DNA of 37,927 nt from a virus (taxonomy: Duplodnaviria; Caudoviricetes). This document shows positions 7,912 to 25,940 of this stretch, piece by piece (within the stretch, counting starts at the first letter, position 1; each line of letters begins with the position of its first letter). The notes below the pieces were generated by a model. That model was not told the DNA's origin, searched no databases, and worked only from the letters and a program-made list of their open reading frames with translations. A program made the translations under genes and the position numbers. Location of the stretch: positions 1-37,927 of IMG/VR virus record IMGVR_UViG_3300007541_005699. The stretch is one strand, 5' to 3'.

Positions 7912-7918
7912 ATATATC

Positions 7919-8404
7919 ATGGCTAATTTAACTGTAACTATACAAGAAACCGTAATATTACCTAATAATAATGTTGAAACTGCTTTAAATTCAAAAATTA
8001 TTACAGGAGTTAATCAGGTTCAAAGAAGAACAGACACTATAGGACCTACCTTTAGTGGCAGTGGTCAACAAATTTTAGCTTTTGTTGACAGTGAATCACA
8101 ACAAGTAGCAGGTTCATTTGTACGAGATGCTGTAAAATATATTAGAATTACTAATTTAAACAATACTACAGCTTGTGATATTTATTTAATTCAAACAAGT
8201 GAAGATGAAACTTTATTCCAATTAGATGCTGGTAAATCATTAATGTTTGCTAATGCTTATTTTGATTCATCTAATACTACTCAATATGTAGCTGGTGATT
8301 ATGTTGATCAATTATATTTTTCATCATTCTCTACTTTAGATTCTATAATGGCAAAATCTCAATCAGGAAGCATTCAATTAGAATACTTTGTAGCTTCTTC
8401 ATAA
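7919..8404 (+). CDS. Hypothetical protein, probably virion structural
   Basis: 161-aa beta-rich ORF after the late motif, within the structural cluster. Confidence 0.6.
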   Translation: MANLTVTIQETVILPNNNVETALNSKIITGVNQVQRRTDTIGPTFSGSGQQILAFVDSESQQVAGSFVRDAVKYIRITNLNNTTACDIYLIQTSEDETLFQLDAGKSLMFANAYFDSSNTTQYVAGDYVDQLYFSSFSTLDSIMAKSQSGSIQLEYFVASS

Positions 8405-8412
8405 TATTTATA
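8404..8412 (+). promoter_or_regulatory. Candidate late promoter ATATTTATA
   Basis: Motif 14 nt before ATG 8427. Confidence 0.6.
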
Positions 8413-8426
8413 ATAAACTTTAGACC

Positions 8427-8801
8427 ATGGCATTAACTTATAGAAACGTAAAAGGTGAAGCATTAACTATTGATGAATTAGATGCTAACTTTCAATACTT
8501 TACAGGATCACACTCTATTACAGGATCATTAATAGTAAGCTCGGCAGTAACAGCTTCTGTCTTTACTGGTTCTTTTGTAGGAACAGGTGCTCTTACCACA
8601 TTAACAACTACAGGAACACTTACAGCTTCAGGATCATTAAGCACTTTTAACTATGTTTCAGGATCTGTTCTTACTCCAACACAATCAGCTGCTCCAAATT
8701 TTGATGGTGTAGATGGTCAATTTACTTTTGCTACTGTTAGTGGACAGTATTACATTTATGTTTGGATGAATGGTGGTTGGAGATCAGCTGAATTAACTTA
8801 A
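8427..8801 (+). CDS. Short virion fibre/decoration protein
   Basis: N-terminal RxxKGxxLTxxExDxNF motif common in phage appendage proteins; TGS/SGS-rich; ends YIYVWMNGGW. Confidence 0.6.
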   Translation: MALTYRNVKGEALTIDELDANFQYFTGSHSITGSLIVSSAVTASVFTGSFVGTGALTTLTTTGTLTASGSLSTFNYVSGSVLTPTQSAAPNFDGVDGQFTFATVSGQYYIYVWMNGGWRSAELT

Positions 8802-8824
8802 ATATAATAATAAAATAAATATAT

Positions 8825-8855
8825 AAAGGGTTCCTAAATTGGAACCCTTTTTTTT
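8825..8855 (+). terminator. Rho-independent terminator
   Basis: AAAGGGTTCC-TAAATT-GGAACCCTTT plus T-tract. Confidence 0.85.
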
Positions 8856-8856
8856 C

Positions 8857-8865
8857 ATATTTATA
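8857..8865 (+). promoter_or_regulatory. Candidate late promoter ATATTTATA
   Basis: Immediately after the terminator, 11 nt before ATG 8877. Confidence 0.6.
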
Positions 8866-8876
8866 ACAAAATAATT

Positions 8877-10109
8877 ATGGCATCTACTGTAATTCCAATA
8901 TGGCCCGGTTCAGCATCTTTTGCTCAAGTATATAATAATTATTATGTTAGTGGTAATTGGCCACCACCAACCCCTTTTGGGTTTTATGATAATGATCCTC
9001 AATTCCAAACCGATGCTAATAAAGTTTCTAACTTTTGTGCTTTGCACTTAGGTTATCCTATTGAAAACGTCGAATTACAAGATATTAACTTTTTTGCTGC
9101 TTTCGAAGAAGCAGTAACAGTATATGGAAACGAATTATACGCTTTTCAATTAAGAGATAATTACTTATCTTTAGAAGGAGCTTCAACTCAAATTGATGTA
9201 AATAATTCTGTATTTACTCCTACAATGGCTACTGTTGTTAGATTATCTCAACAGTATGGTGAAGAAGCAGGTGCTGGAGGTAATGTAACTTGGTATCAAG
9301 GCAGATTAACTCTAGTACCAGGACAACAAAGATATGATTTATCAGCGTGGGCTGAAGCTGAAGGTATAACCGGAGGTATAGAAATTAAAAATGTTTGGTA
9401 TCAACCACCACCTGCAGTTAACCAGTTATATTCAACTGCCTTGTTAACAGGCCAGGGTGGCTTGGGAGGTGTCCCTCCAGCCGGTTTATACGGCTATGGA
9501 TACGGTTACTCAAACTATTTAATGATGCCTACCAGCTTTACTATGCAAAACATTCAAGCAATTGAAATGCAAAACCAAGTAATGCTTTCAAATTATACCT
9601 TTAATATTATAGATAATGTATTAACAGTATTCCCTGTTCCTGGAACAGGTTTTGGTGGAGAGGGATTTGAAGGAGGAGAAGAATTATATTATGGTCAATA
9701 CTTAGTATTTGATTTTATTAAAATACAAGATAGAATTGATGCTGCTTTTGCAGATGGTACAAACAAAATTACCAACACATCAGATGCTCCTTATTTAAAT
9801 CCAACCTATTCTAAAATTAATTCAATAGGTAGAAGCTGGATTTTTGAATATACTTTAGCTAAAGCTAAAGAAATGTTAGGTTTAACTCGTAACAAATATT
9901 CTCAAATTCCTATTCCTGGGGCTGAAGTAACATTAAATGGTGATTCTTTAGCTACACAAGGTATTGCTGAACAAGAAACTTTAATTACAAGATTAAGAGA
10001 ATATTTTGATCAAACTTCTCGCCAAGCATTGCTTGAAAGAAGAGCAGCAGAATCAGCAGCACGTGTACAAGAAATCAATCAGGTACCAATGACAATTTTT
10101 ATAGGATAA
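8877..10109 (+). CDS. Neck / head-tail adaptor protein (T4 gp13-like)
   Basis: LGYPIENVEL, WIFEYTLAKAKEMLG..R.KY..IPIPGAEVTLNG and terminal PMTIFIG match the gp13-like pattern. Confidence 0.8.
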   Translation: MASTVIPIWPGSASFAQVYNNYYVSGNWPPPTPFGFYDNDPQFQTDANKVSNFCALHLGYPIENVELQDINFFAAFEEAVTVYGNELYAFQLRDNYLSLEGASTQIDVNNSVFTPTMATVVRLSQQYGEEAGAGGNVTWYQGRLTLVPGQQRYDLSAWAEAEGITGGIEIKNVWYQPPPAVNQLYSTALLTGQGGLGGVPPAGLYGYGYGYSNYLMMPTSFTMQNIQAIEMQNQVMLSNYTFNIIDNVLTVFPVPGTGFGGEGFEGGEELYYGQYLVFDFIKIQDRIDAAFADGTNKITNTSDAPYLNPTYSKINSIGRSWIFEYTLAKAKEMLGLTRNKYSQIPIPGAEVTLNGDSLATQGIAEQETLITRLREYFDQTSRQALLERRAAESAARVQEINQVPMTIFIG

Positions 10110-10110
10110 T

Positions 10111-10632
10111 ATGGCACTATACGGACAAATGAGAGATATTAGTATGTTTCGATTCGTGAATCGCGAATTGATGCATAACATTATTTCTCAACAATGCGTA
10201 TTTTACAAATACAATTCAACAAAAACAAAAGTAAACATGTATGGTGAAGCAACAACTGGAAGATATTTTGCTGATCCTGTTATATTGTTTGCTTTAATTG
10301 AAACTAGCCAGTTTGAAAACCCAACAAGTGATTTTGGTGTAGATTTTAATTGGAACGTTCAATATAGATTTTTAAAAGACGATTTAGTAGACGCTCAGGT
10401 TTTCCCAGAAGCAGGGGATATTATTATGTTCCAAAATGGTTATTGGGAGATAGATAACGTTAGTACAGCTCAATTCTTTGTAGGTAAAGATCCTAAATAT
10501 CCTTATTTAGATGGAGCAGGATCAAATCCGTACGAAGAAGATTTAGGTCAGTTTGGATATAGTGTATCAGTTATATGTACAGCTCACTATACCCCATCAG
10601 ACAAAGTTAACATAGAATTATCAAGATTATAA
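10111..10632 (+). CDS. Head closure / neck protein (T4 gp14-like)
   Basis: Follows the gp13-like gene; NMYGE and PEAGDII...YWEI motifs. Confidence 0.65.
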   Translation: MALYGQMRDISMFRFVNRELMHNIISQQCVFYKYNSTKTKVNMYGEATTGRYFADPVILFALIETSQFENPTSDFGVDFNWNVQYRFLKDDLVDAQVFPEAGDIIMFQNGYWEIDNVSTAQFFVGKDPKYPYLDGAGSNPYEEDLGQFGYSVSVICTAHYTPSDKVNIELSRL

Positions 10633-11573
10633 TGGCTCAAGTTAGAAAACCAATACCAAAAACCCAACAACAGCTCTCTAATGAGCAGGTCACTCCTTAT
10701 GATCAGCAGGCAGGTAACCCAAATAACTTTATACAAACACCTCAAAATAACAGAGCCTTAAATACATCTTTTAAAGGTGATACTGTTAAACCTTTTAGTG
10801 TTGGTATTCAAGATATTGATGAGGCTGTATTTTATTACTTTCAAAATGTAATTCAACCCTCAGTAATACAAAATGGATCTAGATTAAATGTTCCTGTAAT
10901 TTATGGTTCACCTGAAAAATGGAAATCATATCAAAAAGATGGATATTATAGAGATCAAAAGGGTAAAATTATGGCTCCTTTGATTATGTTCAAAAGAACA
11001 GATATAACTAAAAATAGAACCATTGCAAATAAATTAGATGCTAACTATCCTAATAACTTTGGAGTATTTACAAAACAATATACTCAAAGAGATGCTTATT
11101 CTAATTTTAAAGTATTATCTAATAGAATCCCTCAAAAAGAATTCTATGCTGTAGTAGTACCAGATTATGTTACTGTAACTTATGAAGTAGCTGTATTTAC
11201 TTACTACGTAGAACAATTAAATAAAATAGTAGAGGCAATGGAATACGCTTCAGATGCTTACTGGGGTAATCCACAACGTTACCAATTTAAAGCAATGATT
11301 GATTCCTTTGGTTTCCAAACTGAATTAACTCAAGATAGTGAAAGAATAGTTAGAAGCACATTTAGTGTTAAATTAAACGGATATATTATACCAGAAATAT
11401 TACAAAAAGATATAACAGCCCTTAAGAAATTTTCAAATAAGACCAAAATTATATTCTCAGTTGAAGCTGTAGATAACGCTGCTTTCTTTGAAGGCAACGT
11501 AGTAGGAGACAGAATTGTAACAGAAACAGCTTCTGACAAAGAAACTCAAAATAGATCAACTGCAATTGGATAA
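10632..11573 (+). CDS. Tail terminator / sheath stabiliser (T4 gp15-like)
   Basis: VPVIYGSPEKW, PLIMFKR, PDYVTVTYE and QLNKIVE; located after gp13/gp14-like genes. Confidence 0.65.
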   Translation: MAQVRKPIPKTQQQLSNEQVTPYDQQAGNPNNFIQTPQNNRALNTSFKGDTVKPFSVGIQDIDEAVFYYFQNVIQPSVIQNGSRLNVPVIYGSPEKWKSYQKDGYYRDQKGKIMAPLIMFKRTDITKNRTIANKLDANYPNNFGVFTKQYTQRDAYSNFKVLSNRIPQKEFYAVVVPDYVTVTYEVAVFTYYVEQLNKIVEAMEYASDAYWGNPQRYQFKAMIDSFGFQTELTQDSERIVRSTFSVKLNGYIIPEILQKDITALKKFSNKTKIIFSVEAVDNAAFFEGNVVGDRIVTETASDKETQNRSTAIG

Positions 11574-11605: not shown

Positions 11606-14600
11606 ATGGCTCAAGTAAGATTTTTAGATCAGGTTCCCGTAGGTGTATATAATGTTGATACAGCTGGAAGCGGCGGTGGAACAATTGATATTTACCAAAA
11701 CGGTGCATTAGTAAGTGCTAGTGTACCCTATATTAATATAAGTGGTTCAGCCGAATTATTTACATTCCAAACCTCAGGGGTAACAGTATATGTTTCATCC
11801 TCAGGCGTTGGATTTCCTTTTTCAGGTTCAGCTGTAATTACAGGATCTTTAGTGATCTCAGGATCTGATCCTCAACCAATTATAATTCAAAATTTACCAT
11901 ATGATGCAACCCCATCATATGTTGTAACATATAATACAGGAACTGGAGTATTTGAATATTCTGATATGCCATCTAGTGGTACTTCAGGTTCTTCTGGTTC
12001 ATCTGGTACTTCAGGTAGCTCAGGCTCATCAGGCACTTCTGGTTCTTCAGGAACTTCAGGCTCATCAGGCACTTCTGGTTCAAGCGGAACATCAGGTTCT
12101 TCAGGAACAAGTGGAAGCTCAGGCTCTTCAGGAACATCAGGTTCAAGTGGAACAAGTGGTTCATCAGGAACTAGCGGTTCTTCAGGTTCAAGTGGAACTT
12201 CGGGTAGCTCAGGTTCTTCAGGAACAAGTGGCTCATCAGGTACTAGTGGTTCATCAGGTACTAGCGGTAGCTCAGGTTCATCAGGTACAAGTGGCTCTTC
12301 AGGCTCATCAGGTACTAGCGGAAGTTCAGGCTCATCTGGCACTTCAGGCTCATCAGGCTCAAGCGGAACATCAGGTTCTTCAGGAACTTCAGGTTCTTCA
12401 GGAACTTCAGGTATAAACGGTAGTTCAGGTACTAGTGGCTCATCAGGAACCTCAGGTTCAAGTGGTTCATCAGGTACTTCAGGTTCATCAGGAACAAGTG
12501 GTTCATCAGGAACAAGCGGCTCTTCAGGCTCAAGTGGAACAAGCGGCTCTTCAGGCTCATCAGGTACAAGCGGCTCTTCAGGTAGTTCAGGTACTTCAGG
12601 TTCATCAGGCTCAAGTGGAACTAGTGGTTCTTCAGGTTCATCTGGAACATCAGGTTCATCAGGATCAAGTGGTACCTCAGGAAGTTCAGGTTCTTCAGGA
12701 ACATCAGGCTCAAGCGGAACTTCAGGCAGTTCTGGTACATCAGGTATTGATGGCTCATCAGGCTCATCAGGTACAAGTGGTTCTTCAGGTACAAGCGGTT
12801 CTTCAGGTTCATCAGGAACCTCAGGTTCATCCGGTTCTTCAGGAACTAGTGGTTCTTCGGGATCAAGCGGAACCTCAGGAAGTTCAGGTTCATCTGGAAC
12901 AAGTGGCTCATCTGGAACTTCAGGTTCCTCAGGTACAAGTGGCTCTTCAGGTTCAAGTGGCACTTCAGGTTCAAGTGGGTCTTCAGGAACAAGCGGCTCT
13001 TCAGGCTCAAGTGGAACAAGTGGAAGCTCAGGTACATCAGGTTCATCAGGAACTTCAGGCAGCTCTGGCACTTCAGGCATTGATGGTTCATCAGGTTCTT
13101 CAGGAACAAGTGGCTCATCAGGTACTAGCGGTAGTTCAGGTTCATCAGGTACTAGTGGTTCTTCAGGATCATCGGGCACATCAGGTATAAGTGGTATTAA
13201 TGGTACTTCAGGTTCAAGTGGAACCTCAGGCAGTTCAGGTACTTCAGGCTCATCCGGATCTAGTGGAACATCAGGTTCATCAGGTTCAAGCGGAACAAGT
13301 GGTTCAAGTGGAACATCAGGTAGCTCAGGTTCTTCAGGTACAAGCGGAAGCTCAGGTTCTTCAGGTACAAGCGGTAGCTCAGGAACTTCAGGTTCCTCTG
13401 GTTCTTCTGGTACATCTGGTTCTTCTGGTACATCTGGTTCATCAGGTACTTCAGGTTCCTCTGGAAGTAGTGGCACCTCAGGTATAAGTGGTGTTAATGG
13501 TACTAGTGGTTCTTCAGGCTCAAGTGGCACTTCTGGATCTAGTGGTTCATCAGGAACATCAGGTTCAAGCGGAACGAGTGGTTCATCTGGTTCATCCGGA
13601 ACCTCAGGCTCATCAGGTACAAGCGGCTCTTCAGGCTCAAGCGGAACTTCAGGTAGTTCAGGTTCATCAGGAACAAGTGGTTCATCAGGTTCAAGTGGAA
13701 CAAGTGGTTCATCTGGAACAAGTGGTTCAAGTGGATCATCAGGTACTAGTGGCTCAAGTGGTAGTAGCGGTACTTCAGGTATAAGTGGTGTTAACGGCAC
13801 TAGTGGTTCATCTGGTTCATCCGGAACCTCAGGTTCAAGCGGAACTAGTGGTTCTAGTGGTACTTCAGGTAGCTCAGGCTCATCTGGAACTTCTGGCTCA
13901 TCTGGCACTTCAGGCTCATCAGGTACATCTGGTTCAAGTGGCACCTCAGGAAGTTCAGGTTCATCTGGAACTTCAGGTTCATCAGGAACTAGTGGTAGTT
14001 CAGGTACTAGTGGTTCATCTGGAACAAGTGGTTCTTCAGGCTCATCAGGCACATCAGGTTCTTCTGGAAGCAGCGGAACATCAGGTATATCAGGTGTAAA
14101 TGGCACATCTGGCTCAAGTGGAACTAGTGGTTCAAGTGGAACCTCTGGTTCAAGTGGTACAAGCGGATCTTCTGGCTCATCAGGTACATCAGGTTCATCA
14201 GGCACATCTGGTTCAAGTGGTACTTCAGGTAGTTCTGGTTCATCAGGAACTAGTGGCTCAAGTGGAACAAGTGGTTCATCTGGAACTAGTGGTTCAAGTG
14301 GCTCTTCAGGCACTTCAGGCTCTTCAGGCACTTCAGGCTCTTCAGGCTCTTCAGGTACATCAGGTTCCTCAGGTACATCAGGTTCAAGTGGTTCAAGTGG
14401 TACTTCAGGTATAAGTGGTGTTAACGGCACTAGTGGTTCATCTGGAACTAGTGGTTCAAGTGGTACATCAGGAAGTAGTGGTTCAAGCGGAACAAGTGGT
14501 TCATCTGGTACATCAGGTTCAAGTGGAACCTCAGGTTCATCTGGTTCAAGCGGAACAAGTGGTTCATCTGGAACATCAGGTTCTTCAGGAACAAGTGGCT

Positions 14601-17600
14601 CATCAGGTTCTTCAGGAACAAGTGGCTCTAGTGGTTCAAGCGGAACATCTGGTTCAAGCGGAACAAGTGGTAGCTCAGGATCATCAGGTACTTCAGGTTC
14701 ATCAGGATCAAGCGGTACTTCAGGTATATCGGGAGTAAACGGAACTAGTGGTTCTTCAGGAACTTCAGGCTCATCAGGTACTAGTGGCTCATCTGGTACA
14801 TCAGGTAGCTCAGGTTCTTCAGGAACAAGTGGTTCATCCGGTTCAAGTGGAACTAGTGGTTCTTCAGGTACTTCAGGTTCAAGCGGTACATCAGGTAGTT
14901 CAGGTTCTTCAGGAACAAGTGGATCTTCTGGCTCAAGTGGAACTAGTGGGTCTAGTGGAACTAGCGGATCTAGTGGTACATCAGGTTCAAGTGGTTCAAG
15001 TGGCACTTCAGGTTCTTCTGGTTCTAGCGGTACTTCAGGTTCAAGCGGAACTAGTGGTAGCTCAGGTACTAGCGGTTCATCTGGAACATCTGGTAGTTCA
15101 GGTTCATCAGGTACAAGTGGAAGTTCAGGAACTTCCGGCTCATCAGGTTCATCAGGTACAAGCGGCTCTTCAGGCAGCTCAGGTACTTCAGGTATATCTG
15201 GCGTAAATGGTACGTCAGGCTCTTCAGGAACTAGTGGTAGTTCAGGTACTAGTGGTTCATCTGGAACAAGTGGAAGTTCAGGCTCATCTGGAACTTCAGG
15301 CTCATCAGGCTCATCAGGAACTTCAGGTTCAAGTGGAACTAGCGGATCTAGTGGTACATCAGGTTCAAGTGGTTCATCAGGCACTTCTGGTTCTTCAGGT
15401 TCTTCTGGAACATCAGGTTCAAGTGGCACCTCTGGTTCATCTGGAACATCTGGCAGTTCAGGTTCCTCAGGTACTTCAGGTAGTTCAGGTTCTTCTGGAA
15501 CAAGCGGTTCAAGCGGTTCATCTGGAACATCTGGTTCTAGTGGAACAAGTGGTTCATCAGGTTCTTCAGGAACAAGTGGCTCATCAGGTTCAAGCGGAAC
15601 CTCAGGTAGTTCTGGCACTTCAGGTTCTTCAGGGACATCTGGATCAAGTGGTTCATCAGGGACTAGTGGTTCAAGCGGCTCTTCAGGAACTAGTGGTTCA
15701 AGCGGAACTTCAGGCTCATCAGGAACAAGTGGAAGCTCTGGAACATCAGGTTCTAGTGGCTCATCAGGTACAAGCGGTTCTTCAGGCAGCTCTGGTACCT
15801 CAGGTATAAGTGGTGTGAATGGAACTAGTGGTTCATCAGGAACTAGTGGTAGTTCAGGTACATCAGGTTCAAGTGGTTCTTCAGGAACATCAGGAAGTTC
15901 AGGAAGCTCAGGAACAAGTGGTTCTTCAGGTACATCAGGCTCAAGCGGAACATCAGGCAGCTCAGGTTCAAGTGGAACCTCAGGTTCATCTGGTTCATCT
16001 GGAACTTCAGGCAGCTCAGGAACAAGTGGTTCAAGCGGAACTAGTGGCTCATCAGGCTCATCTGGTACTAGTGGCTCATCTGGTTCATCAGGAACTTCAG
16101 GTTCAAGTGGAACAAGTGGTTCATCTGGTACTTCAGGCTCATCAGGAAGTAGTGGTACTTCAGGTAGCTCAGGAAGTTCAGGTACAAGTGGCTCATCTGG
16201 TACTTCAGGTAGTTCAGGAACTTCAGGTAGCTCTGGTTCATCAGGAACTAGTGGCAGCTCAGGTTCAAGCGGAACTTCAGGTAGTTCTGGTACTTCAGGT
16301 TCAAGTGGAACCTCTGGTTCATCAGGTACAAGCGGCTCAAGTGGTTCTTCAGGAACTTCTGGCTCATCAGGCTCATCAGGTACAAGCGGCTCAAGTGGCA
16401 GCAGTGGTACTTCAGGTATAAGTGGTGTAAATGGAACTAGTGGTTCATCAGGAACAAGCGGTAGTTCAGGTTCTTCAGGAACATCAGGTAGTTCTGGTTC
16501 TAGTGGCACATCAGGTTCTAGTGGCTCAAGTGGAACTTCAGGCTCATCTGGTACTTCTGGAGCTAGTGGGGCTTCAGGAACAAGTGGTACTTCAGGAACA
16601 TCAGGTTCAAGCGGTTCAAGTGGAACAAGTGGTTCATCAGGAACTAGCGGCAGCTCAGGTTCAAGTGGAACTTCAGGTAGTTCAGGTTCTTCAGGTTCTT
16701 CAGGTTCATCTGGTTCTTCAGGTTCATCCGGTTCATCTGGTACTTCAGGAAGTTCAGGTTCATCTGGAACATCAGGCTCTTCAGGTACTAGTGGTAGCTC
16801 TGGAACCTCAGGTTCATCAGGCTCATCTGGAACCTCAGGTTCAAGTGGAACAAGTGGCTCTTCTGGAACATCAGGATCATCAGGTTCAAGCGGAACAAGT
16901 GGTTCTTCTGGTTCTTCTGGAACTAGTGGAAGTTCAGGAACAAGCGGTTCTTCAGGTTCAAGCGGAACAAGTGGTTCTTCAGGTTCTTCCGGAACCTCTG
17001 GTTCATCAGGATCAAGTGGTACTTCAGGTATAAGTGGTGTAAACGGAACTAGCGGTTCTTCAGGAACAAGTGGTTCAAGTGGCTCATCAGGTTCTTCAGG
17101 AACATCAGGTAGCTCAGGTTCATCAGGTACAAGCGGCTCTTCAGGTACATCCGGCTCTTCAGGTACTTCAGGTTCTAGTGGAACATCAGGTAGCTCAGGC
17201 TCATCTGGTACTTCAGGAAGTTCAGGTTCATCAGGAACTAGTGGTTCTTCGGGTACATCAGGCTCTTCAGGCTCAAGTGGTACTAGTGGCTCATCAGGTT
17301 CATCAGGAACAAGTGGTTCAAGCGGTACTTCAGGTTCTAGTGGCTCATCAGGAACATCGGGTTCATCAGGTACTAGTGGTTCAAGTGGCTCATCTGGAAC
17401 TAGTGGTTCAAGCGGTTCATCAGGAACATCTGGTTCATCTGGAACATCAGGTTCTTCAGGATCTAGTGGAACAAGTGGCTCTAGTGGCTCTTCAGGAACA
17501 AGTGGTTCAAGTGGTACTTCAGGTTCAAGTGGTTCATCAGGTACATCGGGCTCATCAGGATCAAGCGGTACAAGCGGAAGTTCAGGAACTTCCGGCTCAT

Positions 17601-20600
17601 CAGGTTCATCAGGTACAAGCGGCTCTTCAGGCAGCTCAGGTACTTCAGGTATAAGTGGTGTAAACGGAACATCAGGTTCTAGTGGTACATCAGGCTCAAG
17701 TGGTTCAAGCGGTACTAGTGGCTCAAGTGGTAGCTCTGGTACTTCTGGGTCAAGTGGCTCAAGCGGAACAAGCGGTTCAAGTGGAACATCAGGCTCTTCA
17801 GGAACAAGCGGTTCTTCAGGCAGTTCAGGAACTTCTGGTTCTTCTGGAAGTAGTGGTACTTCCGGTTCATCAGGAACATCTGGTTCATCAGGTTCATCAG
17901 GAACAAGCGGCTCATCAGGTACCAGTGGCTCAAGTGGAAGCTCAGGTTCAAGTGGAAGTTCAGGCACTTCAGGTTCTTCAGGTTCTAGCGGAACATCAGG
18001 ATCAAGCGGTTCTTCAGGAACAAGCGGTTCTTCAGGAAGTTCAGGAACATCAGGAAGCTCAGGCACATCAGGTTCAAGTGGAACAAGCGGTTCATCTGGA
18101 ACTAGCGGAAGTTCAGGTTCAAGTGGAACATCAGGTTCTTCAGGCTCAAGCGGAACAAGCGGTAGTTCAGGTTCATCAGGAACAAGCGGTTCTTCAGGTA
18201 CTAGTGGTAGCTCTGGAACTTCAGGTTCTAGTGGCTCATCAGGAACTTCAGGTTCATCAGGATCAAGTGGTACCTCAGGTATAAGTGGTGTAAACGGAAC
18301 TAGCGGTTCTTCAGGTACTAGTGGTAGTTCTGGAACTTCAGGTTCAAGTGGAACAAGCGGTTCAAGTGGTTCTTCTGGTACTTCAGGTAGTTCTGGTTCT
18401 TCAGGAACTAGTGGCTCATCAGGAACATCAGGTTCATCAGGAAGTTCAGGAACAAGTGGTTCAAGCGGAACAAGTGGTTCAAGTGGTTCATCTGGTACTT
18501 CTGGTTCTAGCGGTTCATCAGGAACATCAGGTTCTTCTGGTTCTTCAGGAACATCAGGAAGTTCAGGTTCAAGCGGAACAAGTGGTTCTAGCGGAACATC
18601 AGGAAGTTCTGGAACATCAGGATCTAGTGGTTCTTCAGGAACATCTGGTTCTTCAGGTTCTTCAGGAACATCAGGTAGTTCTGGTACTAGTGGTTCATCA
18701 GGAACTAGTGGTAGTTCAGGTACTTCAGGATCATCTGGTTCGTCTGGTACTTCAGGAAGCTCAGGTTCTTCAGGTACATCAGGTTCAAGCGGAACTTCAG
18801 GTTCTAGTGGATCAAGTGGTACATCAGGTAGCTCAGGATCAAGCGGTACTTCAGGTTCATCAGGTACTTCAGGTTCAAGTGGAACTAGCGGTTCATCTGG
18901 TTCTTCAGGAACATCAGGTATATCAGGTGTTAATGGAACAAGTGGTTCAAGCGGAACTTCTGGTTCAAGCGGCACTTCAGGTTCTTCAGGAACTAGTGGC
19001 TCAAGTGGTTCATCTGGAACTTCAGGCTCATCTGGCTCAAGTGGAACAAGCGGTTCTTCAGGCACATCCGGCTCATCTGGCACTTCAGGTTCATCAGGTA
19101 GCTCAGGTACTTCTGGTTCATCTGGAAGCAGTGGCACTTCAGGTTCTTCAGGAACATCAGGTTCAAGTGGCTCATCTGGAACATCAGGTTCAAGCGGTTC
19201 AAGTGGAACAAGTGGTTCATCTGGTACTTCTGGTTCTTCTGGAAGTAGTGGCACTTCAGGTTCTTCAGGAACATCAGGTAGTTCAGGTTCTTCTGGTACT
19301 TCTGGATCATCTGGTTCATCAGGAACTAGCGGTTCAAGTGGTACTTCAGGTTCAAGTGGAACTTCAGGAAGTTCAGGTACTTCAGGTTCATCAGGTTCTA
19401 GTGGAACATCAGGATCAAGCGGTTCATCAGGAACATCTGGTTCATCTGGAACATCAGGTTCTAGCGGAACATCAGGTTCTTCAGGATCTTCTGGAACAAG
19501 CGGATCTTCAGGTTCATCTGGAACATCTGGTTCATCTGGTACTTCAGGGTCTTCAGGATCAAGTGGAACAAGTGGTAGCTCAGGCTCATCAGGAACTAGC
19601 GGTTCATCAGGAACTAGCGGTTCATCAGGAACAAGTGGAAGCTCTGGAACATCAGGTTCTAGTGGCTCATCAGGTACAAGTGGCTCAAGTGGTAGCTCTG
19701 GTACCTCAGGTATAAGTGGTGTAAATGGAACATCAGGTAGCTCTGGAACTTCAGGTTCTAGTGGAACTAGCGGTTCAAGTGGTACTTCAGGATCTTCAGG
19801 TTCTTCTGGAACAAGTGGATCAAGTGGTTCATCCGGAACAAGTGGTAGTTCAGGAACAAGTGGTTCAAGCGGAACTAGTGGTTCATCAGGCTCATCTGGA
19901 ACAAGCGGTTCTTCAGGTTCCTCAGGCACATCAGGTAGTTCAGGTACTTCAGGTTCATCTGGTACAAGCGGTTCATCTGGATCTTCTGGAACAAGCGGTT
20001 CTTCAGGTTCATCAGGTACTTCTGGATCTTCTGGAACATCAGGTTCAAGCGGAACTTCAGGATCAAGCGGCTCAAGTGGAACAAGCGGAAGCTCAGGATC
20101 AAGTGGAACCTCTGGTTCAAGCGGAACAAGTGGTTCAAGCGGAACAAGTGGCTCTTCAGGAACATCAGGATCAAGTGGTTCATCAGGAACATCAGGTTCA
20201 TCCGGATCAAGCGGAACAAGTGGTTCTAGTGGAACATCAGGATCAAGTGGAACATCAGGTAGTTCAGGTTCTTCAGGAACAAGCGGATCAAGTGGCTCTT
20301 CAGGAACTTCAGGATCAAGTGGAACAAGTGGAAGTTCAGGCACATCAGGATCTAGTGGTTCTTCTGGAACAAGCGGTTCATCTGGTTCTTCAGGAACAAG
20401 TGGAAGCTCTGGAACTTCAGGTTCAAGTGGATCTTCTGGAACATCAGGTTCAAGCGGAACAAGCGGTTCAAGCGGAACTTCAGGTTCAAGTGGATCTTCA
20501 GGAACATCAGGTATAAGTGGTGTTAATGGAACAAGCGGTTCTTCAGGTACTAGTGGTAGCTCTGGAACATCAGGTTCTAGTGGAACAAGCGGTTCAAGTG

Positions 20601-22060
20601 GTTCAAGCGGAACTTCAGGTAGTTCAGGAAGTTCAGGAACAAGTGGCAGTTCAGGAACTTCAGGTTCTTCAGGAACATCAGGTTCAAGCGGTTCAAGTGG
20701 AACAAGTGGTTCAAGTGGTTCATCTGGAACTTCTGGTTCTAGTGGTTCATCAGGAACAAGCGGTTCTTCAGGAACATCAGGTTCAAGCGGCTCATCAGGA
20801 ACTAGCGGAAGTTCAGGCTCAAGCGGAACAAGCGGTTCTTCAGGAACATCTGGTTCATCTGGCTCAAGCGGCACTTCAGGTAGTTCAGGTTCATCTGGTA
20901 CTTCTGGTTCTTCAGGAACAAGTGGTTCATCAGGAACAAGCGGTTCTTCAGGTTCAAGTGGAACATCAGGATCTTCAGGTTCATCAGGAACATCTGGTTC
21001 TAGTGGTACAAGTGGATCAAGCGGTACTTCAGGTTCATCTGGAAGCAGCGGTACTTCAGGTAGTTCTGGTTCTTCAGGAACCAGTGGCTCATCTGGTACT
21101 TCAGGCAGCTCAGGTACTTCAGGTAGCAGTGGTTCATCAGGAACAAGTGGTAGCTCAGGCTCATCTGGAACTTCAGGAAGTTCAGGTACTTCTGGATCAT
21201 CTGGAACATCAGGTTCATCCGGAACTTCAGGCTCATCAGGTTCTTCAGGCACTTCAGGTTCATCAGGTTCTAGTGGTACTTCAGGCTCAAGCGGTTCATC
21301 AGGAACATCAGGTATAAGCGGAGTAAATGGAACATCAGGTTCTAGTGGTACTTCAGGTTCAAGCGGAAGCTCAGGTACTTCAGGATCAAGTGGTTCTTCA
21401 GGAACATCAGGTTCATCTGGCACTTCAGGTTCTTCAGGAACAAGCGGTACTTCAGTATCAGTAAGTGGTACTAATAATACAATTGTTAAGTTTACAAGTG
21501 CTACAACAATTGGTAACTCTACTATTACAGATGATGGAACTACTATTGATTTTGGTGTTCCAACAATGGATGTAGCAAGCGGTAACCTAAATATGGGTGG
21601 TGCTAACATCGACACTGGTGGAGGTAATATTGATATCACTGGAGGCGGAGGTATGAACTTTAACGCTGGTACTATAACAGGTACAGCAGGTTCAGTGATT
21701 AACGTAGATACCTTAAATGGTGTAACTAAAAACTTTGATATAACACACCCAACAAAAGGCGAACCTCATAGATTAAGATACTCAGTATTAGAAGGTCCAG
21801 AAATTGGTGTATATGTTAGAGGTAGATTAACTAATAATAACATAATTGAATTACCATACTACTGGGTTGATTTGGTACATGAAGATTCTATAACAGTAAC
21901 TTTAACTTCAATAGGTAGTTACCAAAACTTATATGTAATATCTACAAGTCCAAAAATAATAACAATAGGAAGTGAAAACGGAAATATAGATTGTTACTAT
22001 GTAGTATACGGAGAACGTAAAGACGTAGACAAACTAACAATTGAATATACTAAAAAATGA
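11606..22060 (+). CDS. Giant Gly-Ser/Thr-Ser repeat (collagen-like) virion fibre protein, 3484 aa
   Basis: ~124-aa N-terminal domain, 3159 aa of G-X-Y triplets and a ~200-aa C-terminal region with a KxFxIxHP...LEGPE..VYxRG phage-fibre terminal motif; preceded by the late motif. Confidence 0.85.
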   Translation: MAQVRFLDQVPVGVYNVDTAGSGGGTIDIYQNGALVSASVPYINISGSAELFTFQTSGVTVYVSSSGVGFPFSGSAVITGSLVISGSDPQPIIIQNLPYDATPSYVVTYNTGTGVFEYSDMPSSGTSGSSGSSGTSGSSGSSGTSGSSGTSGSSGTSGSSGTSGSSGTSGSSGSSGTSGSSGTSGSSGTSGSSGSSGTSGSSGSSGTSGSSGTSGSSGTSGSSGSSGTSGSSGSSGTSGSSGSSGTSGSSGSSGTSGSSGTSGSSGTSGINGSSGTSGSSGTSGSSGSSGTSGSSGTSGSSGTSGSSGSSGTSGSSGSSGTSGSSGSSGTSGSSGSSGTSGSSGSSGTSGSSGSSGTSGSSGSSGTSGSSGTSGSSGTSGIDGSSGSSGTSGSSGTSGSSGSSGTSGSSGSSGTSGSSGSSGTSGSSGSSGTSGSSGTSGSSGTSGSSGSSGTSGSSGSSGTSGSSGSSGTSGSSGTSGSSGTSGSSGTSGIDGSSGSSGTSGSSGTSGSSGSSGTSGSSGSSGTSGISGINGTSGSSGTSGSSGTSGSSGSSGTSGSSGSSGTSGSSGTSGSSGSSGTSGSSGSSGTSGSSGTSGSSGSSGTSGSSGTSGSSGTSGSSGSSGTSGISGVNGTSGSSGSSGTSGSSGSSGTSGSSGTSGSSGSSGTSGSSGTSGSSGSSGTSGSSGSSGTSGSSGSSGTSGSSGTSGSSGSSGTSGSSGSSGTSGISGVNGTSGSSGSSGTSGSSGTSGSSGTSGSSGSSGTSGSSGTSGSSGTSGSSGTSGSSGSSGTSGSSGTSGSSGTSGSSGTSGSSGSSGTSGSSGSSGTSGISGVNGTSGSSGTSGSSGTSGSSGTSGSSGSSGTSGSSGTSGSSGTSGSSGSSGTSGSSGTSGSSGTSGSSGSSGTSGSSGTSGSSGSSGTSGSSGTSGSSGSSGTSGISGVNGTSGSSGTSGSSGTSGSSGSSGTSGSSGTSGSSGTSGSSGSSGTSGSSGTSGSSGTSGSSGSSGTSGSSGSSGTSGSSGTSGSSGSSGTSGSSGSSGTSGISGVNGTSGSSGTSGSSGTSGSSGTSGSSGSSGTSGSSGSSGTSGSSGTSGSSGTSGSSGSSGTSGSSGSSGTSGSSGTSGSSGTSGSSGSSGTSGSSGSSGTSGSSGTSGSSGTSGSSGTSGSSGSSGTSGSSGTSGSSGSSGTSGSSGSSGTSGISGVNGTSGSSGTSGSSGTSGSSGTSGSSGSSGTSGSSGSSGTSGSSGTSGSSGTSGSSGSSGTSGSSGSSGTSGSSGTSGSSGTSGSSGSSGTSGSSGSSGTSGSSGSSGTSGSSGTSGSSGSSGTSGSSGSSGTSGSSGTSGSSGTSGSSGSSGTSGSSGSSGTSGSSGTSGSSGTSGSSGTSGSSGSSGTSGSSGSSGTSGISGVNGTSGSSGTSGSSGTSGSSGSSGTSGSSGSSGTSGSSGTSGSSGTSGSSGSSGTSGSSGSSGTSGSSGTSGSSGTSGSSGSSGTSGSSGSSGTSGSSGTSGSSGTSGSSGSSGTSGSSGSSGTSGSSGTSGSSGTSGSSGSSGTSGSSGSSGTSGSSGTSGSSGTSGSSGTSGSSGSSGTSGSSGSSGTSGSSGSSGTSGISGVNGTSGSSGTSGSSGSSGTSGSSGSSGTSGSSGSSGTSGSSGTSGASGASGTSGTSGTSGSSGSSGTSGSSGTSGSSGSSGTSGSSGSSGSSGSSGSSGSSGSSGTSGSSGSSGTSGSSGTSGSSGTSGSSGSSGTSGSSGTSGSSGTSGSSGSSGTSGSSGSSGTSGSSGTSGSSGSSGTSGSSGSSGTSGSSGSSGTSGISGVNGTSGSSGTSGSSGSSGSSGTSGSSGSSGTSGSSGTSGSSGTSGSSGTSGSSGSSGTSGSSGSSGTSGSSGTSGSSGSSGTSGSSGSSGTSGSSGTSGSSGSSGTSGSSGTSGSSGSSGTSGSSGSSGTSGSSGTSGSSGSSGTSGSSGSSGTSGSSGTSGSSGSSGTSGSSGSSGTSGSSGTSGSSGSSGTSGSSGSSGTSGISGVNGTSGSSGTSGSSGSSGTSGSSGSSGTSGSSGSSGTSGSSGTSGSSGTSGSSGSSGTSGSSGSSGTSGSSGTSGSSGSSGTSGSSGTSGSSGSSGSSGSSGTSGSSGSSGTSGSSGSSGTSGSSGSSGTSGSSGTSGSSGTSGSSGTSGSSGSSGTSGSSGSSGTSGSSGSSGTSGSSGTSGSSGTSGSSGSSGTSGSSGSSGTSGISGVNGTSGSSGTSGSSGTSGSSGTSGSSGSSGTSGSSGSSGTSGSSGTSGSSGSSGTSGSSGTSGSSGSSGTSGSSGSSGTSGSSGSSGTSGSSGSSGTSGSSGTSGSSGTSGSSGSSGTSGSSGSSGTSGSSGTSGSSGTSGSSGTSGSSGSSGTSGSSGSSGTSGSSGTSGSSGSSGTSGSSGSSGTSGSSGTSGSSGTSGSSGSSGTSGISGVNGTSGSSGTSGSSGTSGSSGTSGSSGSSGTSGSSGSSGTSGSSGTSGSSGTSGSSGSSGTSGSSGSSGTSGSSGTSGSSGSSGTSGSSGSSGTSGSSGTSGSSGSSGTSGSSGTSGSSGSSGTSGSSGSSGTSGSSGTSGSSGTSGSSGTSGSSGSSGTSGSSGSSGTSGSSGTSGSSGTSGSSGSSGTSGSSGSSGTSGSSGTSGSSGSSGTSGSSGSSGTSGSSGTSGSSGTSGSSGTSGSSGSSGTSGSSGSSGTSGISGVNGTSGSSGTSGSSGTSGSSGTSGSSGSSGTSGSSGSSGTSGSSGTSGSSGTSGSSGSSGTSGSSGSSGTSGSSGTSGSSGTSGSSGSSGTSGSSGSSGTSGSSGTSGSSGTSGSSGSSGTSGSSGSSGTSGSSGTSGSSGTSGSSGTSGSSGSSGTSGSSGSSGTSGSSGTSGSSGTSGSSGSSGTSGSSGSSGTSGSSGTSGSSGTSGSSGSSGTSGSSGSSGTSGSSGTSGSSGSSGTSGSSGTSGSSGTSGSSGSSGTSGISGVNGTSGSSGTSGSSGTSGSSGTSGSSGSSGTSGSSGSSGTSGSSGTSGSSGTSGSSGSSGTSGSSGSSGTSGSSGSSGTSGSSGTSGSSGSSGTSGSSGSSGTSGSSGTSGSSGSSGTSGSSGSSGTSGSSGTSGSSGTSGSSGSSGTSGSSGSSGTSGSSGTSGSSGTSGSSGSSGTSGSSGSSGTSGSSGTSGSSGTSGSSGSSGTSGSSGSSGTSGSSGTSGSSGTSGSSGTSGSSGSSGTSGSSGSSGTSGSSGSSGTSGISGVNGTSGSSGTSGSSGSSGTSGSSGSSGTSGSSGTSGSSGTSGTSVSVSGTNNTIVKFTSATTIGNSTITDDGTTIDFGVPTMDVASGNLNMGGANIDTGGGNIDITGGGGMNFNAGTITGTAGSVINVDTLNGVTKNFDITHPTKGEPHRLRYSVLEGPEIGVYVRGRLTNNNIIELPYYWVDLVHEDSITVTLTSIGSYQNLYVISTSPKIITIGSENGNIDCYYVVYGERKDVDKLTIEYTKK
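11978..21454 (+). repeat. 9-nt-period coding repeat: 1053 Gly-X-Y triplets (almost all GSS/GTS)
   Basis: 9477 nt = exactly 1053 x 9; all 19 variant triplets checked fall in the same 9-nt register; synonymous codons are heavily shuffled. Confidence 0.95.
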
Positions 22061-22072: not shown

Positions 22073-24433
22073 ATGGCTAAAAATGTCCAAATAATACCAG
22101 CTTCAGGAACTCTAGATTTCCAGGATGGAACTCAATCAGTTACACTAACCATGAAAAAATCAGGGGCAGTTGCTACAGGTGTTGATATATCTGTAAATGG
22201 TTCAGCTCCTGTAAGTATTCAAGGTACTCAAGGTACTCAAGGAAGACAAGGTATCACTGGACCTCAAGGTACTACAGGAACCCAAGGTACAACAGGTACA
22301 CAAGGTACAACAGGTACCCAAGGTACAACAGGTACCCAAGGTACAACAGGTACACAAGGTACAACAGGTACCCAAGGCACAACAGGTACACAAGGTACAA
22401 CAGGTACTCAAGGGGCTACAGGAACCCAAGGTGCTATAGGAGCTCAAGGTATAACAGGTGCTCAAGGTGTTCAAGGTAATATTGGTCCTTTAGGTCCAAC
22501 GGGTCCAACAGGCCCAACAGGTCCTCAAGGTACAACAGGTGCAACAGGTGCTCAAGGTATTCAAGGTATAACAGGTAATACGGGTCCCACTGGTCCAACA
22601 GGTCCTACTGGTCCTCAAGGTACTACTGGTGGAACAGGCCCAACTGGTCCTCAAGGAACAATTGGAGCTCAAGGTATCCAAGGTCGCCAAGGTATAACAG
22701 GTCCTGTAGGTGCTACAGGTCCTCAAGGTACTACTGGAGGAACAGGTCCAACAGGTCCAACAGGTCCAACAGGTCCTCAAGGTATACAAGGTATTGTAGG
22801 AGCAACAGGAGCTACTGGACCAACAGGCCCAACAGGTCCTACTGGTTCTCAAGGCACTACTGGTGCTACTGGACCAACAGGTCCTACAGGTGCTCAAGGT
22901 ATCCAAGGTCGTCAAGGTATAACAGGTAATACGGGTCCAACAGGCCCAACAGGTACCCAAGGTACTACAGGCCCAGTAGGTCCTGTTGGTGCTCAAGGTA
23001 TTCAAGGTATAATAGGTCCAGTAGGTGCAACAGGTCCAACTGGTCCAACAGGTCCTCAAGGTACAACAGGTGCAACAGGTGCCCAAGGTATTCAAGGTCG
23101 TCAAGGTATTACTGGTAATACAGGAGGAACTGGTCCTACTGGTCCTACTGGTCCAACAGGTCCTCAAGGTACAACTGGTGCCACTGGAAGTACAGGTGCC
23201 CAAGGTATTCAAGGCCGTCAAGGTATAACAGGTAATACAGGAGGTACTGGTCCAACAGGCCCAACAGGTCCTACTGGTCCTCAAGGTACAACAGGGTCTA
23301 TTGGTCCTATTGGTGCTCAAGGTTTACAAGGTATACAAGGTATAGTAGGTCCTTTTGGAGCTACTGGTCCTCAAGGTACAACAGGTGCAACTGGAAGTAC
23401 AGGTCCTCAAGGTATTCAAGGCCGTCAAGGTATAACAGGTAATACTGGAGGAACAGGCCCAACAGGTCCTCAAGGTACTACAGGTGCAACTGGAGGAACA
23501 GGCCCAACAGGTCCTCAAGGAACAACAGGCGCTACAGGTGCAACAGGTGCCCAAGGTATTCAAGGTCGTCAAGGTATAACTGGTAATACAGGAGGTACTG
23601 GTCCAACAGGTCCTCAAGGTACTACTGGTGCAACTGGCGCTACAGGTTCTCAAGGAACAACAGGTGCTACTGGAAGTACAGGTGCTCAAGGTATCCAAGG
23701 TCGCCAAGGTATAACAGGTAACACAGGTGGAACAGGCCCAACAGGTCCTCAAGGTACTACTGGTGCAACCGGTGGAACAGGTCCAACAGGTCCTCAAGGA
23801 GCAATTGGAGCTCAAGGTATCCAAGGCCGTCAAGGTATAATAGGTCCTGTAGGTGCTACAGGTCCTCAAGGAACAACTGGTGCAACTGGAGGAACAGGCC
23901 CAACAGGTCCTCAAGGTACAACCGGGGGAACAGGTGCTCAAGGTATTCAAGGTCGCCAAGGTATAACAGGAGCAAATGGAGGTACAGGCCCAACAGGTCC
24001 TCAAGGTACAACTGGTCCTCAAGGTACTACTGGTGGATTTACTACAAATTCAAATGCTCAAATTAACTCATTAGGAGTAAACACTCCAGCACCAGGTATA
24101 GCCGGAGAAATTAGAGCTACAGGTAATATTATTGCTTTCTTCTCAGATGCTAGATTAAAAACTAATGTAGAAAAAATTGAATCTGCTTTAGAATTAATAT
24201 CAAAGATTAGAGGTGTTAGATATAATTGGACTGAAGAAGCTGAAGAAATGGCCCCTTCAAGAGCAGGTAAAACTGAAATTGGAGTTATTGCTCAAGAAAT
24301 TGAAACAGTATTTCCAGAAGTAGTAGTAGATTGGGATGAATATAAGACAGTAGTATATGATAGATTAGTAGCGGTATTAATTGAAGCTGTTAAAGAACTT
24401 CATGAAGAAATTAAACAACTAAAAAATAAATAA
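22073..24433 (+). CDS. Collagen-like fibre with C-terminal peptidase S74 intramolecular chaperone
   Basis: 202 G-X-Y triplets ([15 protein letters not shown]); [19 protein letters not shown] cleavage motif at 24143; IGVIAQE and [12 protein letters not shown] coiled-coil end. Confidence 0.9.
22223..24040 (+). repeat. Collagen Gly-X-Y repeat region (202 triplets)
   Basis: 1818 nt = 202 x 9; recurring [13 protein letters not shown] blocks. Confidence 0.9.
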
Positions 24434-24436: not shown

Positions 24437-25321
24437 ATGTTACCATATTCAGGAGAAATAGGATACGGTGATATTCGAGGAGAATTTGGAAGTCCAAATA
24501 ACTTTAATTTGCAAGATGTTTGGAATGGAACTTATGGCCCTTTTAATGTATATAGTTATATCCAACCTATAGACCCGGGAGGAGCTAATTACTCTCCTGC
24601 TGATTTTTATGGGTATGATGGTCAATATATAGTTTCAAATAATCTAGTTACTGTTTGGGATGCCTGGCCTACCATTAACTCATACCCAGGATTTGGAACA
24701 TCAATTACAGATGTCACATTTAATGGACATGATGGTACTCTTTACAATGGAACTGGTTGGGATCCTAGTGATGGAGGATCTTTTTCTTTTGATGGTATAG
24801 ATGATTATATAGCTGGTTTTACTCCTTACTGGACTTTTGGAAATGAAATAACAGTAGATATTTGGATTAAATGGAATACTTCTATTAACTATGGTCAAGG
24901 AGTTGGACAAGGAGTACTAAACAATTATGACAATCCAGGTGATAATATGTGGTTAATGCATGGGAATGGTGGAGGCCAACAAACACTTTCTATATTTGCT
25001 TGGGATTCACCTACTTCTACAGTTGGAGGAGCTACATCAGGATATTTAACTACAGGTAACTGGTACAATTTAATAGGTGTTATAAACTCTGCCGGTTCTC
25101 AAATGTATACAAATGGTACTTTGACAGGAACGGGGGGTGGTTTTGGTGGTGGAAATATGAATACAACCCCATCATCATGTTTATTAGGTGGGGGTGATGT
25201 TAGATATGATTTTAGACGTATGGGTGGAAATATAGCTGCTATTCATATTTACAACTCTGCTTTTATACAAGCTGAAGTAACCCAAAATTTTGGTGCTTTA
25301 AGAGGAAGATTTGGTATTTAA
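24437..25321 (+). CDS. LamG / concanavalin A-like lectin domain virion protein (possible adhesin)
   Basis: FSFDGIDDYI, ITVDIWIK, WYNLIGV and IAAIHIYNSA...EVTQNF; short fibre-tip-like N-terminus (LPYSGEIGYGDIRGEFG). Confidence 0.75.
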   Translation: MLPYSGEIGYGDIRGEFGSPNNFNLQDVWNGTYGPFNVYSYIQPIDPGGANYSPADFYGYDGQYIVSNNLVTVWDAWPTINSYPGFGTSITDVTFNGHDGTLYNGTGWDPSDGGSFSFDGIDDYIAGFTPYWTFGNEITVDIWIKWNTSINYGQGVGQGVLNNYDNPGDNMWLMHGNGGGQQTLSIFAWDSPTSTVGGATSGYLTTGNWYNLIGVINSAGSQMYTNGTLTGTGGGFGGGNMNTTPSSCLLGGGDVRYDFRRMGGNIAAIHIYNSAFIQAEVTQNFGALRGRFGI

Positions 25322-25358: not shown

Positions 25359-25940
25359 ATGTATTCAAGACCTATATTTGATCCTAATTTAGAAGTTGAT
25401 CAAACTAATTATTATTGGTTCGAAAATGGATTTACTTCAAAAGAAGTAACAGAAATCCTAGAACTTACAAAAACTTATGAATTTCAACAAGGTACTATTA
25501 TATCTGGTAACACTGGAGATATAAGAAATAGTAGTATTAAATGGCTTGCTCCTGATGAAAAAACATCATGGGTTTATGATCGTTTAATGGGATGTGTTAA
25601 AGAAGCCAATAATGTTTGGAAATTTAATCTTAATTCTATTTTAGATGATATTCAATATACTGAATATAGAGGTGGAGGAGGTCATTATGATTGGCATATA
25701 GACATAGGTCCAGGACCAATTTCCCACCGTAAAATTTCAGTTATTGTCCAACTTTCAAATCCTTCAGAGTATACTGGAGGTACTTTAGAAATAAGTTCAG
25801 GAAGTAATACTCAAAAAATATCTAATAAAAAAGGAGCCGTAATTGTATTTCCTTCATTTTTACAACATCGAATAACTCCTGTAGCCTCAGGTCTAAGAAA
25901 AAGTTTGGTATTGTGGGCTGGTGGAGAACATTATAAATAA
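25359..25940 (+). CDS. 2OG-Fe(II) dioxygenase (prolyl-hydroxylase/PKHD-like)
   Basis: HYDWHID (HxD), RKISVIVQL, YTGG, FPSFLQHRITPV (distal His) and RKSLVLW (2OG-binding Arg). Confidence 0.9.
   Translation: MYSRPIFDPNLEVDQTNYYWFENGFTSKEVTEILELTKTYEFQQGTIISGNTGDIRNSSIKWLAPDEKTSWVYDRLMGCVKEANNVWKFNLNSILDDIQYTEYRGGGGHYDWHIDIGPGPISHRKISVIVQLSNPSEYTGGTLEISSGSNTQKISNKKGAVIVFPSFLQHRITPVASGLRKSLVLWAGGEHYK

Follow-up and report, generated by a model that had tools for sequence, protein, structure and literature searches.

Phage-borne collagens, glycosylated fibrils from pond water and bacterial protein O-glycosyltransferases are the closest described systems to the protein considered here; the papers are cited for the portions of their text that were available. 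EPclA, a prophage collagen of Escherichia coli O157:H7, is Pro-rich, trimeric and stable without glycosylation, and the same paper presents O-glycosylation as a general mechanism of collagen stabilization (PMC3368898). When NCBI entries named collagen were surveyed in 2008, the boundary lay at 344 triplets and the longest unbroken run at 383 (PMC2443231). TLP-3, a fresh-water pond fibril found by CryoSeek, is about 4 nm wide and has three strands; its repeat, modelled as Gly-Gly-Ser, pairs two small variable positions with an O-glycosylated Ser/Thr, and it has a branched O-glycan of eight sugars per repeat, a rise of 2.9 Å and a twist of 105.6 degrees (Li et al., 10.1101/2025.09.30.679562). 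The fibril is stabilized by interlocking glycans; according to the available text, the authors' sequence search found no source for it and its hand was left undetermined (10.1101/2025.09.30.679562). Finally, the bacterial enzyme TibC glycosylates Ser, not Thr, and its known substrates are beta-helical autotransporters (PMC4358343). Here we describe a gene for a giant, proline-free, collagen-like fiber in a 37,927-nucleotide stretch from a tailed virus (Caudoviricetes; IMG/VR record IMGVR_UViG_3300007541_005699), the whole of which is called the window. The parts of the gene are as follows.

11606..22060, + strand: giant fiber gene (N-domain, triplet shaft and C-terminal head; 3,484 amino acids), the longest open reading frame (ORF) of the window
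11606..11977, + strand: N-terminal domain, 124 amino acids
11978..21454, + strand: triplet shaft of 1,053 Gly-X-Y triplets with no break, from the translation and PF01391
13184..21328, + strand: 16 hydrophobic Gly-Ile-Ser or Gly-(Val/Ile)-Asn knots
21455..22060, + strand: C-terminal domain, 201 amino acids, phrog_17490/28536, predicted homotrimer

We conclude that the array is a real, selected and extreme variant of the collagen-like phage fiber. We also lean, with some reserve, toward the reading that it forms a triple helix of ~0.9 micrometre, to which phage enzymes add O-glycans and which the virion uses to catch hosts. Retranslation of 11978-21454 gives 3,159 amino acids with Gly at the first position of 1,053/1,053 triplets, no Pro, no Lys, Arg or Glu, and two Asp as the only charged residues, exactly as a preliminary description of this DNA had claimed. 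The triplets are GSS (603), GTS (413), GIS (16), GVN (15), GIN (2), GID (2) and GAS (2). Position Y is thus Ser in 1,034 of 1,053 triplets (98.2%), and Ser or Thr occupies X in 1,016 (S, T, A or G in 96.7%); Gly makes up 33% of the array, and Gly or Ala stands at X or Y in only 2 of the 1,053 triplets. The PF01391 profile scores 1,333.6 bits on the array (cut-off, 27.2). A long run with Gly in every third position is a collagen hallmark that the array displays throughout, and a trimerization domain, another hallmark, is predicted (see below). The usual stabilizers, Pro/hydroxyproline or charge pairs, are absent, and the array is therefore not a conventional collagen. If folded as a triple helix it would measure 903-916 nm (at 0.286-0.29 nm per residue), so that the earlier estimate of ~0.9 micrometre holds by arithmetic. 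Matches of the array to sequences in the PDB (collagens, 8ZXL/9IUS) reflect Gly periodicity alone, and 8ZXL, which comes from a collagen-assembly paper, was dropped. An AlphaFold2 run on 333 amino acids of the array as a single sequence gave a predicted local distance difference test (pLDDT) score of 25.3, which speaks neither for nor against any fold. The 124-residue N-domain has no family match in Pfam, PHROG or NCBIfam; relatives of it are present in 142 of 164 candidate viral stretches, and it is likely to be the virion anchor.

The preliminary description had allowed that the array might be an assembly expansion, and this is now largely ruled out by the uniqueness of its 99-mers, the agreement of a second assembly and the lengths found in relatives. 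The array DNA is close to fully scrambled: its longest exact internal repeat is 78 bp and all 9,379 of its 99-mers are unique. When codons were resampled for the same protein, the longest repeat was 33-50 bp and repeats of at least 36 bp numbered 0-8, versus 18 observed. Since an assembler lengthens repeats only by copying, unique 99-mers throughout contradict an expansion artefact. A second IMG/VR assembly, possibly from the same sample (L001; such handles are ours), has 7 mismatches across 10,578 bp, a match of 99.92%; it carries one 1-bp deletion that breaks the frame, and the length otherwise agrees to 1 bp. Five of the six codons that differ between the window and this assembly are synonymous, and two of these variants also occur in run contigs. 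Divergent relatives with closed ORFs and N-domain identities of ~67-72% hold unbroken runs of 1,037, 1,205, 1,249 and 1,406 triplets, and a 176-kb genome rated complete (G026) has 997 triplets behind a different N-domain, so conservation at 1,000-1,400 triplets is observed directly. Four-fold sites have a heterozygosity of 0.57, no Gly is lost among the 1,053 triplets, and only 2 off-pattern triplets lie outside the knot types; scrambled four-fold sites with no Gly lost indicate strong purifying selection on the protein. Some points favor an artefact, or a recent functionless expansion by slippage. No read or contig bridges the array in the four runs examined, and assemblies do break in such arrays: besides the 1-bp deletion of L001, the contig of G005 ends inside its array and the record of Microcystis phage Mel-JY01 starts within a gene of this kind. 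Set against the unique 99-mers, the 78-bp maximum and the relatives with 997-1,406 triplets, we find this explanation barely credible. In Logan contigs from 4 of the 24 listed runs, all 30 bins are covered, and no single piece bridges the array; the runs that hold most of it may be the source sample itself. These contigs have hundreds of joints and an array depth far above that of the flanks, as expected with many related arrays per sample, and were not used as evidence. The runs that hold the array include freshwater, estuary and lagoon metagenomes, among others.

The predicted fold of the C-terminal head (mean pLDDT, 81.6) contains a confident beta-sandwich at residues 93-199 that resembles the C-terminal domains of tailspikes and tail fibers. 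The top structural match is the C terminus of the Pam1 tailspike (Z 8.2, root-mean-square deviation 1.9, 66 residues), followed by middling matches to discoidin I and to the AP22 and pyocin fiber tips (Z 5.9-6.5). Profile comparison of the domain with the PDB gave nothing better than E 0.14, Foldseek gave nothing at E up to 0.001, and no Pfam family matched 21455-22060; in particular Peptidase_S74 (PF13884), which the neighboring fiber has, was not found in it. The preliminary description had proposed a trimer prediction. For the C-domain, three copies reached an ipSAE of 0.93 in 3/3 runs, versus 0.00 for the best of 3 controls, with contact agreement of at least 96% and pLDDT of at least 92. 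Among solved structures, 20 of 30 homo-pairs and 1 of 23 monomers attain the mark used; for three copies these counts apply only roughly, and the score was possibly helped by the likeness to solved trimeric fiber tips. The C-domain is thus predicted to trimerize. Among relatives, three of the four C termini scanned carry Peptidase_S74; in one relative (G027) a single ORF runs from 717 Ser triplets into Pro-bearing collagen and S74, and two others (G001 and G003) contain 8 and 6 Pro triplets in register.

These termini bear on a different fold, a polyglycine-II helix bundle of the snow-flea antifreeze type, possibly ice-binding. The Gly-X-X periodicity and the small polar residues fit such a bundle. 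The snow-flea protein, however, is 46% Gly and belongs to a family with 6-13 helices joined by loops (PMC8409303, available text), whereas the array has 33% Gly, almost no Gly or Ala at X or Y, and no loop that breaks the register. The array protein also ends as trimeric fibers do, and trimeric-fiber termini together with Ser triplets joined to Pro collagen favor a collagen-type triplex over the bundle, which we consider very improbable. Of the preliminary description, the proposal of a collagen-like, probably modified fiber therefore gains from the predicted C-domain trimer, from S74 in relatives and from a TibC-family enzyme nearby; its polyglycine-II alternative fares badly on Gly content and unbroken register. 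A separate observation concerns another fiber: at L138:1103-10470 (G035) the same C-domain follows an unbroken array of 782 triplets (GIQ, GTQ and GSQ). Gln at Y makes this a second proline-free chemistry, and the TibC-like gene of that record is more distant (36%).

The 16 knots are spaced in the window by 33, 33, 34, 36, 35, 52, 68, 68, 68, 69, 70, 71, 88, 89 and 89 triplets, multiples of ~17.4; the quantum is about 17 triplets (17.05-17.2), or ~15 nm. Over 101 segments from six phages, a set that excludes the near-duplicates G002, L007, L021, L008 and L120, the spacings concentrate on this lattice with an R of 0.74 by length and of 0.81 when Thr triplets are weighted less. Uniform draws for a similar set of 115 segments reached an R of at most 0.34 in 1,000 trials. 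When the same fit was applied unchanged to two further phages, 25 of their 33 segments lay no more than 0.2 from an integer, a score matched by 0 of 100,000 uniform draws; these phages are kin of the fitted ones and the test is not fully independent. The quantum increases with Thr fraction (Spearman 0.88, n=8), and DNA autocorrelation shows nothing that corresponds to it. A 17-triplet DNA unit that had recently been duplicated was rejected as a source of the spacing, as there is no excess identity at those lags (in the window, 0.0632 versus 0.0628; four relatives differ by no more than 0.006). The spacing orders also do not fit a neat spiral around a vertex of the capsid, with five sides each of 2, 3 and 4 units, and this was rejected as well. 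Candidates for what sets the spacing are a capsid lattice, staggered fiber packing, or two superhelical turns at the TLP-3 twist. T4 capsomers lie ~14 nm apart. A quantum of 17.05-17.2 corresponds to two turns at 105.9-106.05 degrees, and the TLP-3 twist gives 16.7 triplets; this match may be due to chance, and the twist leaves unaccounted for why one-turn steps (~8.5 triplets) are rare. The Thr triplets of the window show no long-range phase coherence (13/100 shuffles reached the observed peak); among relatives, three had 0-4/100 shuffles at the peak and the other four had 10-100.

Several further features of the arrays were noted. Over the window array, G026, G001 and G003 taken together, Asn precedes Gly-Thr in most knots, an N-X-T sequon, with Asp in place of Asn in some relatives, and a few off-lattice spacings (41, 41, 43, 60, 77 and 97) come close to half-steps. 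In L006 and L008 a non-repeat insert of ~180 residues interrupts the array near its N terminus (fiber residues ~324-523), and two knot intervals differ between these two by a few whole triplets. The first 136 fiber triplets of L010 include pure GSS stretches of up to ~30 triplets, not the alternating pattern seen elsewhere.

The same register and spacing bear on the possibility that the trimeric head sits on a glycosylated, non-helical, mucin-like flexible tether, in which Gly would serve only flexibility and the spacing of sugars. Helix propensity is low in Ser/Thr triplets that contain neither Pro nor charge pairs, Thr-bearing triplets are set apart in the array (408 of 410 runs are single), and the adjoining glycosyltransferases would fit such a tether equally well. 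A disordered brush, however, needs no exact three-residue register over 3,159 amino acids, kept even into the Pro collagen of relatives, and quantized knot spacings need a fixed rise per residue. We therefore regard a tether as unlikely, if still to be reckoned with.

The giant fiber gene lies among the structural genes of a T4-like phage, upstream of a modification block, as the other features of the window show.

403..1005, + strand: T4-like prohead protease
2706..4472, + strand: gp23-type major capsid protein
8877..10109, + strand: head-tail adaptor
within 403..11573, + strand: two unannotated genes just upstream of the fiber
22073..24433, + strand: second fiber, with 202 Pro/Gln/Thr collagen triplets and a Peptidase_S74 chaperone
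24437..25321, + strand: LamG/concanavalin-like virion protein
25359..25940, + strand: 2OG-Fe(II) oxygenase
25921..26931, + strand: viral protein; one cluster (32% of its members) points weakly to glycoside hydrolase/phosphorylase family 130
26924..33366, + strand: modification block with FkbM-type and other methyltransferases and a radical SAM protein
32533..33366, + strand: GT9 glycosyltransferase
33363..35645, + strand: GT4 glycosyltransferase fused to a TibC/Aah-family protein O-glycosyltransferase
34551..35645, + strand: the TibC/Aah-family domain, full-length (TIGR04414; PDB 4RAP)
35642..36301, + strand: FkbM-family methyltransferase
37362..37925, + strand: tail sheath, cut by the window end

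The 2OG-Fe(II) oxygenase is a possible prolyl hydroxylase for the second fiber. A PDB search with the 25921..26931 protein gave no match. Elsewhere in the window, amidinotransferase/dimethylargininase-like and phosphatidylserine-decarboxylase-like genes adjoin each other between the capsid gene and phoH (5501-7179, +), and a small Ser/Thr-rich fiber-like protein with no convincing family match is encoded just before the tail sheath (36332-37042, +).

The candidate for the modifying enzyme is the TibC-like domain, whose gene lies 13 kb downstream of the array in the same gene block. It is a member of the TIGR04414 family (218.6 bits against a cut-off of 200, over profile positions 9-369 of 374) and matches PDB 4RAP with an E value of 1.1e-37. 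TibC works with Asp110, Thr226, Lys230, Arg286, Trp305 and four iron-binding Cys, and Arg286 selects an ADP-activated donor (PMC4358343, available text). The window enzyme keeps the equivalents of the catalytic Asp110, Thr226, Lys230 and Trp305 and all four iron-finger Cys, and judged by this sequence it is probably active. Among 45 distinct full-length hits in the analyzed loci, Asp110, Lys230, Trp305 and the four Cys are kept in 45/45 and Thr226 in 37/45. One relative carries a tandem pair of TibC-like genes (G001:C1:10764-12715), 63% and 33% identical to that of the window.

Co-occurrence of enzyme and array could be searched in 41 of 44 records, which are related to one another and mostly fragments. 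Leaving aside 13 records that had been picked via the enzyme, 17 of the remaining 28 hold both, 5 the array only, 1 the enzyme only and 5 neither (Fisher p 0.013), which is suggestive only. Arrays lie within 10 kb of TibC-like genes in 11 of 58 cases, a range that is too short, as the distance in the window is itself 13 kb. A 735-kb record (LR756501.1) matches the Ser/Thr triplet motif 1,439 times on a single strand and has a TibC-like gene; its array was not within the three stretches of it that were examined.

These counts also bear on whether the helix is glycosylated at all. An unglycosylated triple helix might instead be held by the C-terminal trimer, by hydroxyl-water networks and by side-by-side packing at the knots, with the enzymes serving other substrates. 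The array occurs without the enzyme in 5 of 41 records, and EPclA is stable without glycosylation, although Pro-rich (PMC3368898, available text). On the other hand, Y is nearly always Ser, the residue modified by TibC, and the enzyme is found in 17 of the 22 array-bearing records not chosen through it. We judge a bare helix to be unlikely.

Several observations nevertheless weigh against a helix glycosylated by the phage's own enzymes. Where TibC has Arg286 the window enzyme has Ser, only 7 of 45 hits keep the Arg, and a GmhA-type SIS_2 isomerase domain was not found in 5/5 genomes; the donor therefore need not be ADP-heptose, and the domain appears to be a relative within the BAHT family that is not assignable as an ADP-heptose transferase. 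TibC acts on beta-helical autotransporters, not on collagen chains, and the window enzyme could instead have its targets in other proteins of the virion or at the host surface. When all 41 records are counted, the linkage is weak (both, 25; array only, 5; enzyme only, 6; neither, 5; p 0.098). One 269-kb genome rated complete (G005) has an array, which extends to the last bases of its contig, with no TibC or GT9 match, and LR756504 has the enzyme with no match to the array motif. Folding, glycan, expression and virion location are all read from genes and predictions, and the predicted trimer covers the C-domain, not the triple helix itself. As a separate observation, the capsid protein (2706-4472, +) has a Ser/Thr-rich insertion between two matched stretches and is a possible other glycosyltransferase substrate.

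Weighing both sides, we still prefer the glycosylated triple helix. In this model, folding would start at the C-terminal head, from which the chains would zip into a collagen-type triple helix. The TibC-like domain would prime Ser, and the GT4, GT9 and methyltransferase enzymes would extend and decorate the glycan. Interlocking glycans would then stand in for proline and charge pairs, as in TLP-3, while the Ile/Val-Asn knots, multiples of ~15 nm apart, may be sugar-free spots in the coat at which the fiber docks or packs. The N-domain would anchor the fiber near the neck, giving the virion a long reach for catching hosts.

The comparison with described systems is close in some respects only. 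Like TLP-3, the array has two small residues and a Ser/Thr in each tripeptide. Unlike TLP-3, which has one glycan per repeat in its map, the array has triplets with two hydroxyl residues. The usual inter-chain bond of collagen runs from Gly to X, whereas that reported for TLP-3 joins the Ser3 carbonyl to the Gly1 amide, a different bond unless the register differs. A glycan could be placed on the array in either register, given that 1,016 triplets have Ser or Thr at X. TLP-3 shows a molecule of this kind to be possible, without identifying the array protein as TLP-3. A bolder proposal is that such fibers of aquatic T4-like phages are the source of TLP-3-type glycofibrils. Each would be a micrometre-long, proline-free collagen whose glycan shell is made by the phage's TibC-like block, and its bare knots, at n x 15 nm, would hold the fiber in register with a lattice or with its neighbors; we offer this tentatively and hold it to be rather doubtful, as other sources are conceivable.

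With EPclA-type PF01391 fibers the protein shares a Gly-X-Y shaft, a trimerizing C-terminal domain (predicted here) and a place among tail/fiber genes; unlike EPclA, the array is Pro-free and far longer. As in the autotransporter heptosylation systems TibC/TibA and Aah/AIDA-I, whose BAHT-family transferases are dodecamers, an enzyme gene lies near that of a Ser-rich protein, a surface protein in those systems. The window enzyme differs from TibC and Aah in being phage-encoded, in its fusion to GT4 and in having Ser in place of Arg286, and its proposed substrate is a triplet chain, not a beta-helix. Vent-worm cuticle collagen and the exosporium glycoprotein BclA reportedly carry O-glycosylated Thr, with Pro still present. 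The proposed likeness to these collagens is Y-position O-glycosylation in place of hydroxyproline, with Ser at Y and no Pro in the array.

By capsid protein, the nearest cultured phages are Flavobacterium phage vB_FspM_immuto (54.0%) and Mel-JY01 (48.6%), and in both the structural genes are ordered as in the window. Neither the array motif nor a TibC-like enzyme was found in immuto. Mel-JY01 has a TibC-like domain (42.6%) with, as in the window, an array upstream of it, ~5 kb away; this array comprises 202 Ser/Thr-rich triplets in four runs, in a + strand frame that is open at the record start. It is thus broken up, and the record begins partway through its gene, whereas the window array is unbroken. 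The region is annotated in Mel-JY01 as two minus-strand hypothetical proteins. In the window too, an open frame of 3,250 amino acids shadows the array on the opposite strand (11887-21639, -), and such shadow frames lead to wrong-strand annotation, as in Mel-JY01. Moraphages are described, in the available text, as aquatic, Bacteroidota-linked and glycosyltransferase-rich (PMC12619734). Our literature search, which covered journals outside subscription, returned no paper on such a fiber class or on the source of TLP-3, and none on Mel-JY01; PMC12956863 makes no mention of TLP-3, and PMC12403961 has nothing on glycosylation.

Since wrong-strand calls are easily made, as Mel-JY01 illustrates, this fiber class is probably under-counted. 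Mel-JY01, with both array and enzyme by sequence, appears to be a cultured test system. If the proposed reading is true, the fiber would represent a third way to stabilize a collagen helix, without proline or charge pairs, over a run ~3 times that of type I collagen. An orphan cryo-electron microscopy glycofibril would gain a gene and candidate enzymes, opening glycan-driven folding to genetic tests, and the fiber would be the target of a protein O-glycosylation system that the phage encodes for its own virion. A reach of about a micrometre would, moreover, change estimates of encounter rates for large phages in dilute water.

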